From Candidatus Nomurabacteria bacterium (GTDB lineage: Bacteria > Patescibacteriota > Minisyncoccia > Phycocordibacterales > JAACPR01), in NCBI GenBank assembly GCA_020632215.1, contig JACKFZ010000007.1:1187-65186 (forward strand): a stretch of DNA of 64,000 bases. Direction: 5' to 3'. Shown in pieces: positions 6,409 to 57,943 of this stretch. Every line of letters starts with the position of its first letter. The first letter of the stretch is position 1. The position numbers and the translations under genes are program-made. Under the pieces are notes generated by a model. The model was not told the DNA's origin. It searched no databases and worked only from the letters and a program-made list of their open reading frames with translations.

Positions 6409-6424
6409 AAGTGTTGTAAAATGT

Positions 6425-7080
6425 GGTAGTACCTGATGATTGCTCTTTTATTATTTTAATGAAAGGGAGGAAAGTCCGAACACTTGTCCCGTGGCCCAGC
6501 GAAGCTGGGTTTTACGGGACAGAAGGGTAGCGCCCTAAATTTTCGCAAAACGAAAAAAGGGACCAATCACTTTAGTGATTTTGGTGGTAATACCCGTCGC
6601 CAGTGCTACGCACTGGGAATTCGAAATCAGAATGTCGAAATCCGAAAAAATATTAAGTCTTAAAATCTAAACAAATTGTTTATAATTTAAGATTTAGAAA
6701 TTAAAATTTGTTTCGAATTTCGTTTTTAGAATTTCGTGCTTCCGATGCGTAGTATTGGTAGAGGTGCGAGCAGAGACGCCACAATCGAAAGAAAGTGGCA
6801 CCCTTAACGGGGTGAGTACTATGGAAACATAGGTGCTAAATCACATACAAAAATTTCAATTTTTATATGTGATTGCACGATCAGATTTTTCTTTGAAAAA
6901 TCTGATTTAGTGAAACGGCAAAATCCTTACCTAAGTGCAAGACCGTGCCGCGTAAAGATGGCTTCGCCATCCACCCGGAGAGTCGCTAGAACCAAATAGT
7001 AATATTTGGTCCAGATAAATAATCATCTAGGATAGAGAAGCTCTATCTGATACAGAATTCGGCTTATAGGTACAAGCGAA
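6425..7080 (+). ncRNA. rnpB: RNase P RNA, bacterial type A, with an AT-rich expansion hairpin
   Basis: P4 5' strand 'GGAGGAAAGTCCGAAC' at ~6467. 'GTGCCGCGTAAAGATGGCTTCGCCATCCACCCGGAGAGTCGCTAGAACCAAATAG' matches E. coli 'GUGGCACGGUAAACUCCACCCGGAGCAAGGCCAAAUAGG'. P4 3' strand 'ACAGAATTCGGCTTAT' at ~7051. P1 pairing 'GTACCT'(6429)/'AGGTAC'(7068). GC-rich island in AT-rich DNA. Confidence 0.8.
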
Positions 7081-7097
7081 AATATGAGAAAAACCAC

Positions 7098-11229: not shown

Positions 11230-11329
11230 ATTAATAAATAATGAATAATTTAAAATTCTTTTTTCTTTATTAAAAATTTAATATTTCTTTAACGAAATTT
11301 TATCTCAAAGATTTATAATTAACATTAAG

Positions 11330-11428
11330 CCTAGTACCAGAGCAAAGCTCGGTACTAGATTAGTCCCGAAATGTCCACAAACCAGAACGAAGTTTGGTTC
11401 GGGTCTGGTTCGGGAGGGGAAGGGGAGC
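11330..11428. repeat. copy 1 of a ~110-bp dispersed hairpin-rich repeat family (also at 35794, 53604, 57751)
   Basis: 'CTAGTACCAGAGCAAAGCTCGGTACTAG ATTAGTCCCGAA...CCAGAACGAAGTTTGGTTCGGGTCTGGTTCGGGAGGGGAAGGGG' shares 'ATTAGTCCCGAA', 'TGGTTCGGG' and paired hairpins with the other copies. Confidence 0.5.
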
Positions 11429-11671
11429 TCCTATTTCTGAAATTTAAGTATTGACTGTCTGATTATTTTATTTAATAACATTATAAAGAAGCATTCCCCA
11501 GAAGTTTATTTTATGGTAGATTTGTGATGTTCGAGGCTATACTCCCTAGACAAGACCCCTGGGGAGACCTTGCGGCCAATCCGAACAAAGGTGCACCCTC
11601 ATACCACAGTTACCTTGTTGCCTCTGGCGACACGAAAGGTTGAGGGTGCACCAGCTTTTATTTTATATGTT

Positions 11672-17804: not shown

Positions 17805-20018
17805 TTAAACAATTGGCCATTTTTCTACCATCAAGATATTCTTTTCTTTATTTTGAGGTAATGATTGCCAGATTTCTTCTGTGACAAAAGGAGTAAAAGG
17901 GTGAAGAGCTTTCAGTATATTTGTTAATGAATTCAGGAGTAGATTTTTTCTTGAAATTATTTCTTCTGATGTTCCTTTTTCAAAAATATTTTTACTTTCT
18001 TCAAGGATGATGTCTGCAAATTCATGCCATACATAGTGATAAAGTTTTTCACCAGCAAGATAAAGTCTGTAATTTTCTATATCTTCCGTTACTTCTTTTA
18101 GAATTTCTTTTTGACTATCAATGATAGTTTTATCTGCTGGAGAGTAAGCTGAAAAATCTTTTGTATATTCAATATCACTAGTATTTTCAATAACAAATCT
18201 AGAAATATTCCAAAGCTTATTTGCAAACTTTTTATAAGCTTTGATTTTATTCTCTGACATATTACTGTCGCTACCAGGACCAACTCCAATGATGAGAGAA
18301 AGGCGAACAGCGTCAGCTCCGTATTTTTCTGAAACTTCTAATGGATCAATGATGTTACCAAGAGACTTGGACATTTTTCTTCCTTTTTCATCACGAACAA
18401 GTCCATGTAGATAAACACTTTTGAAAGGAATATCTCCAACAAGATATGTGCTCATCAAAATCATTCTAGCAACCCAGAAAAATAGAATGTCATAGCCAGT
18501 TTCTAGCAAATCAGTTGGATGATAATTTTTAAAATCATTCGTCTCTTCGGGCCATCCTAAAGTAGAGAAGGTCCAAAGACCAGAAGAAAACCAAGTGTCT
18601 AAAGTGTCTTCATCTTGAGTCCATCCAGATTCTGTAGGAGCTTCTACACCGACATATATTTCATTTTCTTTGTACCAAACAGGAATTTGATGTCCGTACC
18701 AAATTTGTCTTGAAATACACCAGTCACGCAAATTATCAATCCATTGGAAGTATGTTTTCTCAAATCTATCAGGAACTATATTTATTTGATTTGATCTTAC
18801 AACATGTTGCATCAACTCTTTCAAGGAAACTTCTTGTTCGTTTTTAATACCTTTTAATTTTGAATTTTTAATTTTAAATTTTCTATTTACATCTATAAAC
18901 CACTGTCTCATTATTTGTGGTTCTATAACCGCCTCAGTTCTTTCTGCTGTAGCGATATTGTGAACATAGTTTTCATCTGTTTTTTCGACAAGACCTTTTT
19001 GTGCCAATTTTTCTATGATCTTTTCTCGCGCTTCTCTGATTTTCATACCTGCAAATTCACCAGCGATAGGAAGAAGTTTACCGTACTTGTCGATTATTTG
19101 TTCTTTATCTAAATTATGTCGCTCTGCAATTTCAAAGTCCGTAGAGTCATGCCAAGGAGTGATAGTCATAACACCTGTTCCAAATTCCATATCAACAGAT
19201 TCATCCTTGATAATGGTTGCTGTAATAGGTCCATTAATCCATTCCAATTCTATAGTTTGACCATCTTTGTATTCAGCATATCGTTTATCTTCTGGATGCA
19301 TAACGACATACTTGTCACCAAACTTTGTTTCTGGTCGGGCTGTTCCTATAACGAAAGGACCATATTTAAGATAATAGAATTTACCTTTCTCTTCTTTTCG
19401 AACTATCTCATCATCAGAAATAGTTGTCTGACCTTTTGGATCCCAGTTTACAATTCTATCTCCGCGATAAATCAAGCCATCATCGTACATTTTTTTGAAA
19501 GCTGTTCTTACGGCAACTTCTCTTGTTTTGTCTAATGTAAAAGCTTCTCTAGACCAGTCTAGAGACGAACCCATTTTTTTGGTTTGATTGATTATCGTGT
19601 CGTGACTCTCTTGTGCAAACTGACTAACTTTTTTTATAAATTCTTCTCGGCCCAAATCTTGTTTTCTAATTTTTTCTTTTTCCAAAATTTTCTCAACTTT
19701 TGATTGAGTAGCAATAGCGGCATGATCTGTTCCAGGAACCCACAAAGTTCTTTTTCCTTTCATTCTGTGATATCGGACTATGATGTCTTCGATAGCAAGC
19801 ATGACAGCATGACCTATGTGTAGTGTGCCGGTGACATTTGGTGGAGGAAGAACAATAGAGAACTTTTCTGCATCTTTGTCTGTAACACCAGCTTTGATAC
19901 ATTCATCAGGATTAAAAAAACCACTTTCTTCCCAAAGTTTATATATCTCATCCTCTGTAGCTGTCGGATCGTAAGGTTTAAGAAACTTCTCATCCAGATG
20001 CTCATTAGCTTTATCCAT
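17805..20018 (-). CDS. valS: valyl-tRNA synthetase (compact 737-aa form)
   Basis: 'PPPNVTGTLHIGHA', 'RYHRMKGKRTLWVPGTDHAAIATQ', 'KMSKSLGN'; lacks the long C-terminal coiled coil. Confidence 0.85.
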   Translation of the reverse strand: MDKANEHLDEKFLKPYDPTATEDEIYKLWEESGFFNPDECIKAGVTDKDAEKFSIVLPPPNVTGTLHIGHAVMLAIEDIIVRYHRMKGKRTLWVPGTDHAAIATQSKVEKILEKEKIRKQDLGREEFIKKVSQFAQESHDTIINQTKKMGSSLDWSREAFTLDKTREVAVRTAFKKMYDDGLIYRGDRIVNWDPKGQTTISDDEIVRKEEKGKFYYLKYGPFVIGTARPETKFGDKYVVMHPEDKRYAEYKDGQTIELEWINGPITATIIKDESVDMEFGTGVMTITPWHDSTDFEIAERHNLDKEQIIDKYGKLLPIAGEFAGMKIREAREKIIEKLAQKGLVEKTDENYVHNIATAERTEAVIEPQIMRQWFIDVNRKFKIKNSKLKGIKNEQEVSLKELMQHVVRSNQINIVPDRFEKTYFQWIDNLRDWCISRQIWYGHQIPVWYKENEIYVGVEAPTESGWTQDEDTLDTWFSSGLWTFSTLGWPEETNDFKNYHPTDLLETGYDILFFWVARMILMSTYLVGDIPFKSVYLHGLVRDEKGRKMSKSLGNIIDPLEVSEKYGADAVRLSLIIGVGPGSDSNMSENKIKAYKKFANKLWNISRFVIENTSDIEYTKDFSAYSPADKTIIDSQKEILKEVTEDIENYRLYLAGEKLYHYVWHEFADIILEESKNIFEKGTSEEIISRKNLLLNSLTNILKALHPFTPFVTEEIWQSLPQNKEKNILMVEKWPIV

Positions 20019-20071
20019 ATCGTCAAATACTAGCAGAAATACGGTCTAAAATGAAGGTGGTAAGGGAGTAG

Positions 20072-20113
20072 ATAAAAAATCGCCGGGGCGGGAATGTATG
20101 ATATACATCCCGC
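20072..20113 (-). terminator. Rho-independent terminator on the minus strand at the end of the GC-rich non-coding region
   Basis: Minus strand 'GCGGGATGTATATCATACATTCCCGCCCCGGCGATTTTTT'. Confidence 0.5.
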
Positions 20114-20940
20114 ATGATCCCGGCGCAAGGTTTCAGAGTAGTTGATCCGAAAGTTGTTAAAAACTCGCATTGTGTTTCCAGAACTGGAACAATAGAAGAC
20201 CGTGCCTCTATCTGGTTTCACCCAACAATGAAAGTCACACAGTGCTTAGGCGACCTGTGGTAACGTAACTTTCTTCCCTAGGGACCCCGAAGAGTCCTTT
20301 CACACATCACCCGTCAACCTTAATATTTCAACCACAACATTACAATGAAATTAAATATTAGTCAAATAGAAAAAAAGGCGAAGAGGAGAGAGCCTTTTTG
20401 TGTGATGAGCAAGTCGAATCTCGGCGCTTCTGCCAAAGTTCCGGATTCTGGGCTCCTCTCCTCTTCGTCCCACCAAAATACTACTAAAAGTTAAATATGT
20501 CAAACAAAAAGCAAATAAAAAGAAAGGGCGCGCTCGTAATCCAGTTTGTTGTCAGCTCAGGAATCGGACCACGAGGCGCCATAAAATCTGGAGAAAAGGA
20601 GGGGTAGAGAGCACTTGCAACAGTGGAATCTTTACTACCTCCTCTTCTTTCTTTGATGTTGATAGCGCTCTGGGCCACCGCCGGGGGTAAGATTGGGTGG
20701 ATGAGCCCCATCCTGCTACCCAATCACCACACCGGCGGTGGCCTCTGAGACAACAACACAAGCCAAATCTACATTTGATTCTACATTTAACACAGAGATT
20801 GTCAAATCACAAACAAACAAAAAGAAAAGAAGGGCCGGAGCAACCCAAGGTTGGCGCGATAACAACGGGTTATCGCTTTGGAAACGTCACCAACCCTCCT
20901 GGTTCGGGTTGTCCGGCGTTCTGAGTCTAACTCTTTCTGT

Positions 20941-22209
20941 CTAAGAATTCAAACTTAAATTTCCTTCTGCTTTGATTTCTGGATTTACAACAGCTTGCTC
21001 TCTAAAACTTTTTAAATATCCAGCCATACCTATCATCACTGCATTGTCAGTTGATAGCTTTTGCTCAGGGAAAAAGACTTCGATATCTTTTTCTTCAACT
21101 AACTCTTGTAGGTTTTTTCTAATATATTGATTTGATATAACACCTCCTCCAACTATTAGATTTTTAATATCAAATTGATCTATAGCATCTGTTACTTTTT
21201 TCTTTAAAACATCGACAATAGCTTGTTCAAATTCTCTAGCAATTATTTTCTTCATATCATCAGAAATTTCTCCTAGCTCTTGAGTTTTGTATAAAACAGC
21301 AGTTTTTAATCCTGAAAAAGAAAAATCAAAGTCTTTACTATTGACCATTGGTCTTGGGAAGGAGATTTCAGAAAAAGGTAAATCTTTTTCTCTAGCTTCC
21401 TCTGCTAGCTTGGCAATTTCTGGTCCACCTGGATATGGGAGACCTAATAATCTAGCCACTTTGTCATAGGCTTCACCGACAGCATCATCTTTGGTTTGAC
21501 CTATAACTTCATATTTTCCCCATGATTTTATTAAAACTAACTCAGTATGACCGCCAGAAATAAGAAGAGCTAAGGTAGGGAAGTTGATTTTCGGATTTCG
21601 AATTTCGGATTTAGTGCTTCCTCGATTTTGATTAATCAAAATCGAGGATATGTGTCCTTCCATATGATTCACAGGTAAAAGAGGTATTTGCCAAACAATA
21701 GAAAGCGCTTTTGCAAAATTAATACCTGTCCATAGGCAAGGTTCTAGTCCAGGTCCAGATGTTACGGTAATAAGGTCAAGATCAGGTTTTTCGTGTGTTT
21801 CCAAAAAAGAAAAAAGTTTTTCAGTTAATTGAGGTTCTCTTTCCAAAAGTTTTTGGATTTCATCTGTTTTGTCATTCAAGACTTGTTCTGGGATTTCATC
21901 TGTTTTGTCATCCCGGACTTGATCCGGGATCTTGTTAGAATTACTTTCTGTTTGGAATTTGGAATTTGGAATTTGGTTTTTTGTGATTTGGAATTTGGAA
22001 TTTAATTCCTCCAAAAGGGGCACCAAATTTCTCGCATGTTCTCTTTTTGCCACAGCAGGAAAAACCCCTCCATATTCTTTGTGTATATCTATTTGAGAGT
22101 TTAAAGCTTCTGAAATAATTTCAAACTTAGGATTATCTAAATCACCTTCTGCTTCAATAATTGCTAAAGCCGTTTCATCACAAGATGTTTCTATGGATAG
22201 GATTTTCAT
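20941..22209 (-). CDS. tsaD: tRNA N6-adenosine threonylcarbamoyltransferase TsaD (Kae1/Gcp) with a ~60-aa low-complexity insertion
   Basis: 'MKILSIETSCDETALAII', 'TVTSGPGLEP', 'LLISGGHTELVL', 'FSGLKTAV' TsaD motifs; the insertion carries 'IPDQVRDDKTDE/IPEQVLNDKTDE' and 'NSKFQ' repeats. Confidence 0.85.
   Translation of the reverse strand: MKILSIETSCDETALAIIEAEGDLDNPKFEIISEALNSQIDIHKEYGGVFPAVAKREHARNLVPLLEELNSKFQITKNQIPNSKFQTESNSNKIPDQVRDDKTDEIPEQVLNDKTDEIQKLLEREPQLTEKLFSFLETHEKPDLDLITVTSGPGLEPCLWTGINFAKALSIVWQIPLLPVNHMEGHISSILINQNRGSTKSEIRNPKINFPTLALLISGGHTELVLIKSWGKYEVIGQTKDDAVGEAYDKVARLLGLPYPGGPEIAKLAEEAREKDLPFSEISFPRPMVNSKDFDFSFSGLKTAVLYKTQELGEISDDMKKIIAREFEQAIVDVLKKKVTDAIDQFDIKNLIVGGGVISNQYIRKNLQELVEEKDIEVFFPEQKLSTDNAVMIGMAGYLKSFREQAVVNPEIKAEGNLSLNS
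21856..22012. repeat. DNA-level tandem repeats inside the tsaD coding sequence
   Basis: (GGAATTT)n runs 'TTGGAATTTGGAATTTGGAATTTGG...GGAATTTGGAATTT' and a direct repeat 'GGGATTTCATCTGTTTTGTCAT' x2; contains the palindrome 'GACTTGATCCGGGATC', also seen at 35650. Confidence 0.6.
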
Positions 22210-22213
22210 TATG

Positions 22214-22287
22214 TGAGTAATACAGGACTTGAACCTGTGACCTCCACTACGTCAAAGTGGCGCTCTAGCCAACTGAGCTAATTACTC
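22214..22287 (-). tRNA. tRNA-Val (anticodon GAC)
   Basis: Reverse complement 'GAGTAATTAGCTCAGTTGGCTAGAGCGCCACTTTGACGTAGTGGAGGTCACAGGTTCAAGTCCTGTATTACTCA'; the 3' end is 4 nt from the tsaD start codon. Confidence 0.85.
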
Positions 22288-22971
22288 ATTTTGTTCGGAT
22301 ACTTTATCACAAAAGTATGCACTTAAAAACATTAATTCTCGAGATATTTGAACTCTCCCTATTCTTACCAGACAGACACCCTTATAGTGGCTGTAGGTTC
22401 TTTTTCCTAACGTTCGTTTGTCAAAAAAGGTATGTTTAAAATTATCTTTTGGTATTTTAAGCGACTTCGACCAGTATTCAGTTAGCTCCTTTTCATCTTG
22501 GTCTGATCTTAAATGTAGATCACAATAAAAATCTGTATAGTCCAAGTCATACAATTTAATTATTGATTCTATAAAAAACTTCAAGATAATGGGATTTGAA
22601 TTGCCCATACCAGTATCGCCAGTTTTAAATCCTTCCCCTAGATATAGTAGGGCAAGCGCAAGCTTTAAGACACTTTTGTCCCCCAAATGTATTTTAGTCA
22701 ATGTCTCCTTTGCTTTATCTTTTGCAATAGAAATTCTTTTTTCTTTTTCTGCAATATGCCACTCCTTTGCTTTTTCTCTTGCCTTAACCAATCCTTTTTG
22801 CCATTCTCCTTTTAACTTTTCTTTTTGTTTTTGAGTAAGTTGTATGTTTTTAAACCATCCACTTAAAGTGGACTTAGGAATGTTCAGTCTATCACTTATC
22901 TTTCTGATAGATACACCTTGCCTCCGTAAGTTAAGAGCCTTTTCTTTGCTTGAACCACTATACATTAGCAA
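22282..22971 (-). CDS. HTH-domain protein with a possible degenerate single LAGLIDADG motif
   Basis: N-terminal 'RRQGVSIRKISDRLNIPKSTLSGWF' helix-turn-helix; 'LALALLYLGEGFKTGDTG' loosely resembles LAGLIDADG; sits between tRNA-Val and tRNA-Glu. Confidence 0.3.
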   Translation of the reverse strand: MLMYSGSSKEKALNLRRQGVSIRKISDRLNIPKSTLSGWFKNIQLTQKQKEKLKGEWQKGLVKAREKAKEWHIAEKEKRISIAKDKAKETLTKIHLGDKSVLKLALALLYLGEGFKTGDTGMGNSNPIILKFFIESIIKLYDLDYTDFYCDLHLRSDQDEKELTEYWSKSLKIPKDNFKHTFFDKRTLGKRTYSHYKGVCLVRIGRVQISRELMFLSAYFCDKVSEQNE

Positions 22972-35793: not shown

Positions 35794-35862
35794 AAAAATA
35801 AAAAAATAAAAAATCTATACAAAATTCCCGCCCAGGGTGGGGGCTTACCGCTTACCTCCTTA
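35794..35862. repeat. truncated copy of the dispersed repeat family (same orientation as the 57751 copy)
   Basis: 'AAAAATAAAAAAATAAAAAAT...ATTCCCGCCCAGGGTGGGGGCTTACCGCTTACCTCC' versus 57751 'AAAAAAAATAAAAAAT...ATTCCCACCCCTTATTGGGTGGGGGCTTGCCGCTTACCACTCC'. Confidence 0.5.
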
Positions 35863-40142: not shown

Positions 40143-40565
40143 TATTATGATAGAATATTTTTTGGGTCTGTAATTAACTGGAAAGGAGGTATCAGAACAA
40201 TGAAGAAAAATAGTGCCTGATGAATCTCGTATCCGAACAGCATCAAAAACTGCCTTCACAGGCGATAAATAAATGAAGGTAAGTCTAGGCGTGATGGTGC
40301 TGCGATTCTCTGAAAGAATATTCCAAATCTCTGATTCCATGCGAGTAATCCAGAGGGTTGGCCTTTAATGTTCTTTTTCGTGGACTTGCTGCCACCTGAG
40401 GATTTGTGCGTTTACGGCAAGGGGCCTGACCAGTCCTTAGTGCGTTTCCTCCCCAAGATTAGGGGCTTGCACAAGGTCTAATACTCCCAACTAGTTTTCT
40501 GGTTTAGGAGTTTTTTTATTTCTTTTTTCCAATTCTTGTATTTAAATAAATTTTACATAAAAAGA

Positions 40566-53332: not shown

Positions 53333-53603
53333 ATCAGTAATGCGCCTCCTGCGCCGTTTGTTTTTTGTTTGTTTTTGAGAATTTTGAAACTCATTCCATT
53401 GTTAAGGAGCGAGTGTCTGCCCGCGATTTTACCACATAAAGTGGTCATTTGTCAAGCTAAGAATAAATAAAATATGGCTTTGTTGAGCCGTCAAAATAGG
53501 TTTAGTTTGTATAAAAGTAATATCTATGGTTTAACTACGTTTTTCATTTTTTCTTTAATATTCTTTGTATGTTTCTTGAGAATGGTTTTTATATAATCTT
53601 CAA

Positions 53604-53732
53604 TAGCCCAGAACCAAAGCATAGCTTGGTTCTGGATTAGTCCCGAACCGAACAAAGTTCTGGTTCGGGAGTGGTAAGCGGTAAGCCCCCACCCAAAAGG
53701 GCGGGAAATTTTTATTTATTTTTAAAAGTCGG
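53604..53732. repeat. full copy of the dispersed repeat family; inverted partner of the 57751 copy
   Basis: 'ATAGCCCAGAACCAAAGCATAGCTTGGTTCTGGATTAGTCCCGAACCGAACAAAGTTCTGGTTCGGGAGTGGTAAGCGGTAAGCCCCCACCCAAAAGGGCGGGAAATTTTTATTTATTTTT'. Confidence 0.65.
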
Positions 53733-53765
53733 GCAATGCTTACGCATCACCCTCTTTTATTTTCT

Positions 53766-57750: not shown

Positions 57751-57873
57751 AAAAAAAATAAAAAATTTGCACAATATTCCCACCCCTTATTGGGTGGGGG
57801 CTTGCCGCTTACCACTCCCGAACCAGAGCAAAGGTCGGTTCGGGACTAATCCAGAACTAAGCTCCGCTTTAGT
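57751..57873. repeat. full copy of the dispersed repeat family, inverted relative to the 53604 copy
   Basis: Its reverse complement 'CTAGCCCAGAACTAAAGCGGAGCTTAGTTCTGGATTAGTCCCGAACCGACCTTTGCTCTGGTTCGGGAGTGGTAAGCGGCAAGCCCCCACCCAATAAGGGGTGGG' aligns at about 85% with 53604-53720. Confidence 0.65.
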
Positions 57874-57943
57874 TCTGGGCTAGTCTGAGCATAACATATT
57901 CATTCTCAAGAAACATAAAAGAAAAGTTAAAGAAAAAATGAAA

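Follow-up and report, generated by a model that had tools for sequence, protein, structure and literature searches.

A structured, GC-rich non-coding island between tsaD and valS of a Candidatus Nomurabacteria bacterium and its candidate small RNA genes

The gap between tsaD and valS in a 64-kb stretch of DNA from a Candidatus Nomurabacteria bacterium (hereafter referred to as the window) holds an island that is modular in its anatomy, extremely stable in its predicted fold and devoid of coding potential, that belongs to no known RNA family and that is absent from relatives. We favour, with slightly better than even confidence, the reading that this island is a strain-specific insertion in which a hairpin in the 3' UTR of tsaD would be followed, on the minus strand, by three small RNA genes, each of them transcribed independently. 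According to the proposed scheme, the hairpin of unit A would end the tsaD transcript ahead of units B, C and D. Each of these three units would consist of a sigma-70-type promoter placed right after the preceding T-run, a GC-rich hairpin body and an intrinsic terminator, and they would be made as discrete, stable small RNAs of about 250 nt (B), 100 nt (C) and 260 nt (D). Just past the last terminator, valS would then be transcribed separately, from a conserved extended -10 promoter of its own.

The gap between tsaD and valS is real, GC-rich and non-coding

The gap comprises 922 nt (20019-20940) and is flanked by two minus-strand genes (Table 1). The product of valS is 100% identical to the NCBI valine--tRNA ligase of Candidatus Nomurabacteria bacterium, and the best TsaD matches among species-representative genomes come from metagenome-assembled genomes of Paceibacteria/Parcubacteria, with an identity of 53% at most. 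An earlier note on this DNA had described the gap as richer in GC than its surroundings and as lacking any open reading frame of more than 80 codons, and both observations hold. The GC content is 46% in the gap vs 35.3% in the window as a whole, 27-30% in the adjacent end of tsaD and 39-42% in the adjacent end of valS, while the longest open reading frame in the gap is 79 aa.

The island is not an assembly artefact, because independent Logan assemblies carry the identical sequence: those of SRR26387399 and SRR12358676 match it at 100%, and a third Logan contig (SRR12358675), which covers 311 nt of the island, shows no difference there. Among the related loci, which are denoted here by L numbers, this third contig (L083) represents the same strain as the window, the sole difference being a 36-nt in-frame repeat indel within tsaD; copies as close as these are uninformative about the evolution of the island. 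The coding sequence of TsaD (422 aa in the window) contains tandem repeats with periods of 7 and 36 (21964-21999 and 21855-22003); the L083 protein has 410 aa, corresponding to 36 nt fewer in frame, and the insertion is length-polymorphic within the strain. Upstream of tRNA-Val and tsaD there is also a gene for a 229-aa protein (22282-22971, minus strand), for which an N-terminal match to HTH_23 is the only one and which, among the related loci with called genes that we inspected, has a counterpart only in same-strain contigs.

We searched the island for coding content in several ways. Neither Pfam nor tblastx against 96 related loci gave a match. We also concatenated the eleven longest stop-free frames (53-93 aa) and compared them with 5.8 billion proteins, again with no match. 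No Shine-Dalgarno-plus-start arrangement was visible in the island on reading the sequence. A frameshifted pseudogene, which the earlier note had itself named as a competing explanation, or a group of small protein-coding genes could draw on the open frames of 56-93 aa that are found on both strands; however, these frames cross hairpin arms and terminators, and neither tblastx, nor Pfam, nor the protein search lent this explanation any support, thus we regard it as extremely improbable. The GC-rich gap is confirmed as real, non-coding and, as detailed below, strongly structured.

The most stable predicted folds of the window lie in the island

When both strands of the 64 kb were folded in tiles, the four lowest 150-nt folding energies all fell within 20601-20800, and they were lower than the energies at any tRNA cluster of the window. 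The island taken as a whole has z = -6.7 in comparison to dinucleotide shuffles. Its fold consists of the same local modules together with pairings between AU-rich spacers only, and no long-range GC helices are formed between the modules.

The individual helices that had been picked out earlier by eye are all present. The long-range stem formed by 20377-20394 and 20451-20470 has a perfect 12-bp core (inverted repeat I3) and belongs to a hairpin of about 100 nt with a folding energy of -43.3 kcal/mol and z = -3.5. The nested hairpin at 20673-20743 corresponds to inverted repeat I1 and is located within a 261-nt stretch whose z is -7.2 (minus strand) or -7.8 (plus strand), while the hairpin GGCGCGATAACAACGGGTTATCGC is the tip of the 84-nt hairpin of unit A. 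A Rho-independent terminator of the minus strand, previously placed at 20072-20113, does exist, and no other hairpin-plus-T-run of the window is as strong (-28.3 kcal/mol), but its position is slightly offset: the stem occupies 20081-20126 and the T6 run 20074-20079. The two strongest sites of this kind in the window are both in the island. The folding of unit B is equally stable on both strands, whereas unit D prefers the minus strand (z = -2.8 vs -1.2 for the plus strand). No tandem repeats were found in the island. Outside of it, the stretch 40190-40500 had been a side lead and was rejected, as its z of +0.95 indicates that it is not structured.

Promoter-like sites and terminators divide the island into four units

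The features recognised on the minus strand are collected in Table 1. Units B, C and D each possess their own promoter-like site, and a hairpin plus T-run follows each of the units A, B, C and D, an arrangement that corresponds to the generic description of a bacterial small-RNA gene. Unit A differs in that the promoter scan found no promoter-like site at 20918-20940, the stretch that separates the hairpin from the stop codon of tsaD. Unit A is probably the terminator of tsaD, and possibly gives rise to a 3'UTR-derived RNA as well.

Table 1. Positions of the island units, of their promoter-like sites and of the flanking genes in the window
Feature	Position	Strand	Description
valS	17805-20018	-	class I aminoacyl-tRNA synthetase by Pfam
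Unit D	20074-20330	-	multi-branched, ~260-265 nt; -88.3 kcal/mol, z = -2.8; ends in the 20081-20126 terminator
P_D, promoter-like, weaker	20337-20365	-	TTGACT-17-TAATGT, 8/12 matches, right after the U-run of unit C
Unit C	20370-20470	-	single hairpin, ~100 nt; near-perfect closing stem with a 12 bp perfect core, then U7 (20370-20376)
P_C, promoter-like	20475-20503	-	TTGACA-17-TATTTT, 10/12 matches
Unit B	20516-20770	-	three hairpins, ~250 nt; -113.3 kcal/mol, z = -7.2, 0/200 shuffles as stable
Unit B, HP1	20673-20743	-	from the fold
Unit B, HP2	~20590-20650	-	from the fold
Unit B, HP3	20526-20580	-	from the fold
P_B, promoter-like	20778-20805	-	TTGACA-16-TAGAAT, 11/12 matches, right after the T-run of unit A
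Unit A, tsaD 3' UTR	20811-20940	-	imperfect hairpin 20834-20917, -45.1 kcal/mol, z = -3.8; T-rich tail 20811-20831
TsaD gene	20941-22209	-	identified by Pfam

The calls of P_B, P_C and P_D are consensus matches only. P_D was under the threshold of the general promoter scan and was picked up as a site of the form TTGACW-N16-18-TAnnnT. Sites of this form are rare: 9 were found in 128 kb (both strands), and 3 of them lie in the 922-nt island, where ~0.07 would be expected. All three are on the minus strand and each directly follows a T-run. Two further sites, at 53455 and 42513, are located upstream of real genes, because of which we read the pattern as one that suggests the promoter consensus of this organism. 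Perfect TTGACA hexamers occur in only 4 promoter-like sites of the window, 2 of which belong to the island. The minus strand is likely the transcribed one.

The T-run-plus-promoter modules ahead of units B and C form the repeat D1, with 82% identity in a stretch of 28 nt. The units B, C and D themselves are unrelated to one another, except that unit C weakly resembles HP2 of unit B; we considered paralogy of these two, and found it unconvincing for a match of 12 bits. At the end of unit B, HP3 and the T-run at 20516-20525 (CTTTCTTTTT) form a terminator-like structure of -24.3 kcal/mol, and unit D includes a cUUCGg tetraloop hairpin (GGACUCUUCGGGGUCC). Transcription start positions were placed at the usual spacing downstream of the -10 hexamer, which gives candidate starts at ~20770 for unit B, at 20468-20470 for unit C (at the base of its stem) and at ~20330 for unit D. 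The predicted 3' ends of these units are ~20518, 20370 and 20074, respectively.

The island matches no known RNA family and has copies in the same strain only

We used Rfam in two modes. At the gathering threshold, cmscan of the whole window gave nothing for the island, and at E <= 10 the island had only meaningless matches to models of long-hairpin microRNAs. Covariance models of OLE, GOLLD, ROOL, HEARO, raiA and the group II intron had no match in the island at E <= 10, the same was true of RNase P, tmRNA, SRP and 6S RNAs by covariance models or ARAGORN, and ARAGORN detected neither tRNA nor tmRNA in it. This agrees with the earlier note, in which no likeness to tmRNA, SRP RNA or group II intron domain V had been recognised by eye. 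In the E-value mode, the whole window yielded tRNAs and RNase P only. The latter is a bacterial class A RNase P RNA of 659 nt at 6424-7082 (plus strand; 52.6 bits, E = 3e-15), which is missed at the Rfam gathering cut-off of 100 bits. The negative Rfam result for the island carries weight because the E-value mode recovers this highly divergent RNA. The RNase P RNA has the conserved motifs GGGAGGAAAGTCCGAACAC and ACAGAATTCGGCTTA, and its extra sequence amounts to about 290 nt, part of which is an AT-rich hairpin at ~6620-6740.

Homologues were sought with the whole island and with each unit by blastn and nhmmer against 96 related loci and the window, and only the same strain was found; the known copies of the island are identical ones. 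Single-sequence covariance models of unit C and of HP1+HP2 of unit B, run over 88 sources, detected no homologue, their only matches being an unrelated gene terminator in L063 and a palindromic self-match. There was no match of the island in phages and plasmids, no hit in IMG/VR for exact patterns taken from units B, C and D, and none in JGI metagenomes for the exact pattern of unit D. The pattern of the HP1 stem did match in JGI data (n=28), and these matches were dismissed as chance hairpins in high-GC contigs. A mobile element or a repeat family (MITE, REP) was rejected as well, since there are no significant terminal inverted or direct repeats and no second copy in the window or in the 96 related loci. 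We also compared the units with about 60 translation start regions of the window, and none of these scored as an mRNA target above shuffled controls. The best prediction, unit D against the gene at 11570, reached ~2 sd and was not significant after multiple testing.

The earlier note had proposed one large structured RNA for the whole gap, transcribed together with tsaD. The non-coding and strongly structured nature of the region stands, and a single RNA of about 900 nt, either on a common transcript with tsaD or extending across the gap, would be in keeping with the z of the whole island, with a GC-rich and ORF-free stretch in an AT-rich genome, and with the fact that oversized, divergent RNAs occur in this window, as the RNase P RNA with its 52.6 vs 100 bits illustrates. 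The notion of a single transcript, however, does not agree with three strong internal terminators and three internal promoter-like sites on the minus strand, nor with a fold that lacks global architecture. Moreover, no Rfam match was obtained at E <= 10 in the very mode that recovers the divergent RNase P, and the nearest relatives do not have the island (see below). The probability that we give to one RNA of ~900 nt is accordingly very small, and the modular reading, with three separate units after tsaD, is the one that we prefer.

valS most likely has a promoter of its own

Between the terminator of unit D and the valS ATG (20016-20018) there is the sequence ATTTCTGCTAGTAT, a motif at 20016-20041 (minus strand) that is placed outside the island. 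Within it, the extended -10 TGCTAGTAT (20027-20035, minus strand) ends 8 nt ahead of the ATG. The extended -10 motif ATTTCTGCTAnTAT just upstream of the valS start is conserved in L084, L088, L091, L093 and L094, and among 77 relatives there are 24 in which TGnTAnnnT is present no further than 60 nt upstream of valS, vs 5.9 expected. It is most likely that valS is transcribed separately as a leaderless or near-leaderless mRNA, and the recurrence of the motif implies that such valS mRNAs would be made in many Paceibacteria.

The position of unit D invites another explanation, namely that it is a cis-acting leader (an attenuator or a T-box-like element) which controls valS by termination or read-through at 20081-20126. 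Like the T-box and attenuator leaders in front of aminoacyl-tRNA synthetase genes, unit D (about 260 nt) is structured and has an intrinsic terminator ~55 nt ahead of the start codon. Moreover, L038 and L080, which are distant Paceibacteria, have in common a structured RNA of similar length upstream of valS, described in the next paragraph. Nevertheless, unit D is unlike such leaders in that it contains no T-box sequence and matches neither the T-box model (RF00230) nor any other leader family at E <= 10; the arms of its terminator have no antiterminator pairing better than that of shuffled arms; and it is not homologous to the L038/L080 RNA. Furthermore, the extended -10 stands downstream of the terminator and is kept in relatives without a leader (L093, L094, L084). 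Because this conserved extended -10 is found just before the ATG, unit D would not be the valS leader and valS would be transcribed on its own. We therefore hold a leader function of unit D to be highly unlikely.

The RNA common to L080 (6364-6614) and L038 (4223-4474) is about 250 nt long and also lies between tsaD and valS. It starts at a promoter-like TGnTAGGnT motif, has no match in Rfam and shows compensatory changes in 10 of 42 predicted pairs in a comparison of two sequences. This RNA could represent an unrecognised RNA family or a valS leader, and, as far as two sequences can indicate, it weakly suggests that functional RNAs may sit at the tsaD-valS junction in some lineages.

The junction is variable in Paceibacteria and the island appears to be a strain- or species-specific insertion

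The order tsaD -> valS -> PrsW -> HSP20 is common in Paceibacteria. The distance between the first two genes ranges from 7 nt to >5 kb across 80 Paceibacteria loci. In the closest relatives by ValRS (74-77% identity) the gap measures 90 nt (L093), 25 nt (L095), 26 nt (L096) and 529 nt (L094), the last one being unrelated in sequence to the island, and the island is absent from all of them. A lack of conservation in related genomes is what the earlier note had named as speaking against a functional RNA, and the nearest relatives are indeed without the island. Because their gaps are either short or unrelated, the island appears to be an insertion specific to the strain or species. Elsewhere the junction is occupied by a PemK/MazF toxin gene (in L036), a gene for a MazG-like protein (in L049) or small antisense ORFs (in L034 and L039), and in further loci by structured sequences that are ORF-free; it behaves as a variable hotspot. 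A tRNA-like stretch in the L003 gap was discarded, as it was not called by ARAGORN.

Some of the ORF-free gaps parallel the island in their architecture. Near-consensus promoters on the sense strand accompany ORF-free stretches with negative z at the junction of L084, L088 and L094; a terminator-like site is present in the gaps of L084 and L094, and the scan listed none in that of L088. Of the ORF-free gaps that we folded, most had a z between -2 and -10, among them L084, L088, L094, L018, L005, L073, L077 and L048. The gaps with small antisense ORFs (L034, L039) served as an internal control and gave z near 0. The only motifs common to the junction gaps are T-runs and the valS promoter, with the RNA of L038 and L080 as the one exception, and Rfam gave no match on the related tsaD-valS junctions.

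The absence of the island from the closest relatives would fit a young, possibly neutral, insertion, and a young and functionally neutral insert is the main rival to the small-RNA reading. According to it, the island is a neutral or decaying insert at a recombination hotspot, its hairpins are at most a stack of terminators shielding valS from tsaD transcription, and the promoter-like sites arose incidentally or yield no product. In favour of this rival, the island is strain-specific, with gaps of 25, 26 and 90 nt in the nearest relatives, and it lies at a junction that is highly variable over the 80 loci and that holds accessory genes (PemK toxin, MazG-like protein) in other lineages; in addition, neither a homologue nor a target was found. 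On the other hand, three near-consensus promoters placed exactly after three T-runs are far above the expected ~0.07, the fold energies are the most extreme of the window, and there are no terminal repeats or extra copies that would mark a mobile element. In addition, the GC content is 11 points over that of a 35% GC genome, in which neutral DNA should drift to AT. We regard the neutral insert as somewhat unlikely. The reading in terms of three small RNA genes has its own counterpoints, namely that no homologue was found, that the island is missing in the closest relatives, that P_D has just 8/12 matches, that unit B is strand-symmetric and that no mRNA target stands out in the window.

Comparison with known systems and possible roles of the units

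Tandem clusters of independently transcribed small RNAs are known in bacteria, e.g., Listeria LhrC1-4, Vibrio Qrr and E. coli OmrA/OmrB. The RNAs of such a cluster are paralogous to each other, have defined seed regions and are conserved among related species. The island resembles them in that its candidate RNAs of 100-260 nt are arranged head to tail in one intergenic region, are non-coding, and have a predicted sigma-70-type promoter and an intrinsic terminator per unit. It differs from them in that its units are mutually unrelated, apart from the weak likeness of unit C and HP2, and limited to one strain. Like OLE, GOLLD, ROOL, HEARO and raiA, the island is long, GC-rich, ORF-free and highly structured in a low-GC genome; unlike these RNAs, it is broken by promoters and terminators, has no long-range architecture and is not conserved. 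Unit A is comparable to 3'UTR-derived small RNAs and long terminator hairpins, as a hairpin plus T-run directly follows the stop codon and there is no promoter of its own. With 84 nt and -45 kcal/mol it is, however, far larger than the tsaD terminators of relatives, such as the hairpin of ~20 nt in L093.

By their anatomy the units are putative orphan bacterial small-RNA genes that belong to no known family. Our best guess as to what they do, given with low confidence and being the weakest part of the proposal, is that they would be trans-acting or protein-binding small RNAs. The near-perfect duplexes of units A, B and C, with 12-bp perfect cores in longer stems, make processing by RNase III plausible.

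In a broader interpretation, the junction would be a place where hairpin RNAs that are lineage-specific, very stable and driven by promoters have repeatedly been born or captured, and these RNAs would form an undescribed class in the Candidate Phyla Radiation. The unrelated versions counted for it are those of the window, L084, L088, L094, L018, L005/L038 and L038/L080. The hairpins could in this case be double-stranded RNAs that are processed by RNase III and serve in phage defence or in the interaction with a host, a role in line with the toxin genes found at the same site in other lineages. We consider this interpretation unlikely. The Candidate Phyla Radiation comprises uncultured bacteria with small genomes, the present organism among them, and its small-RNA biology is almost unexplored. 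For Saccharibacteria strain TM7x, a transcriptome preprint of 2022 states that there are no currently validated small RNAs (10.1101/2022.03.25.485537). If expressed, the three units of the island would be clear and testable small-RNA candidates in a genome of Paceibacteria, and a single syntenic junction at which unrelated structured RNAs recur would offer a place to study gene gain and loss in streamlined genomes. For now the value of the finding is modest, as it concerns an orphan of a single strain with no handle on function.

A repeated three-hairpin element elsewhere in the window

The window also contains a repeated element of about 110 nt with three hairpins, which is unrelated to the island, has no match in Rfam and was not found in the related loci. 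Its copies are located at 53590-53735 (minus strand), 57765-57905 (plus strand) and 11312-11421 (minus strand), with a partial one at 35812-35858 (plus strand). The stems of the three hairpins are CCCGCCC..GGGTGGG, CCCGAACC..GGTTCGGG and CCAGAACC..GGTTCTGG, and two of the copies are 84% identical, with compensatory changes in the stems.
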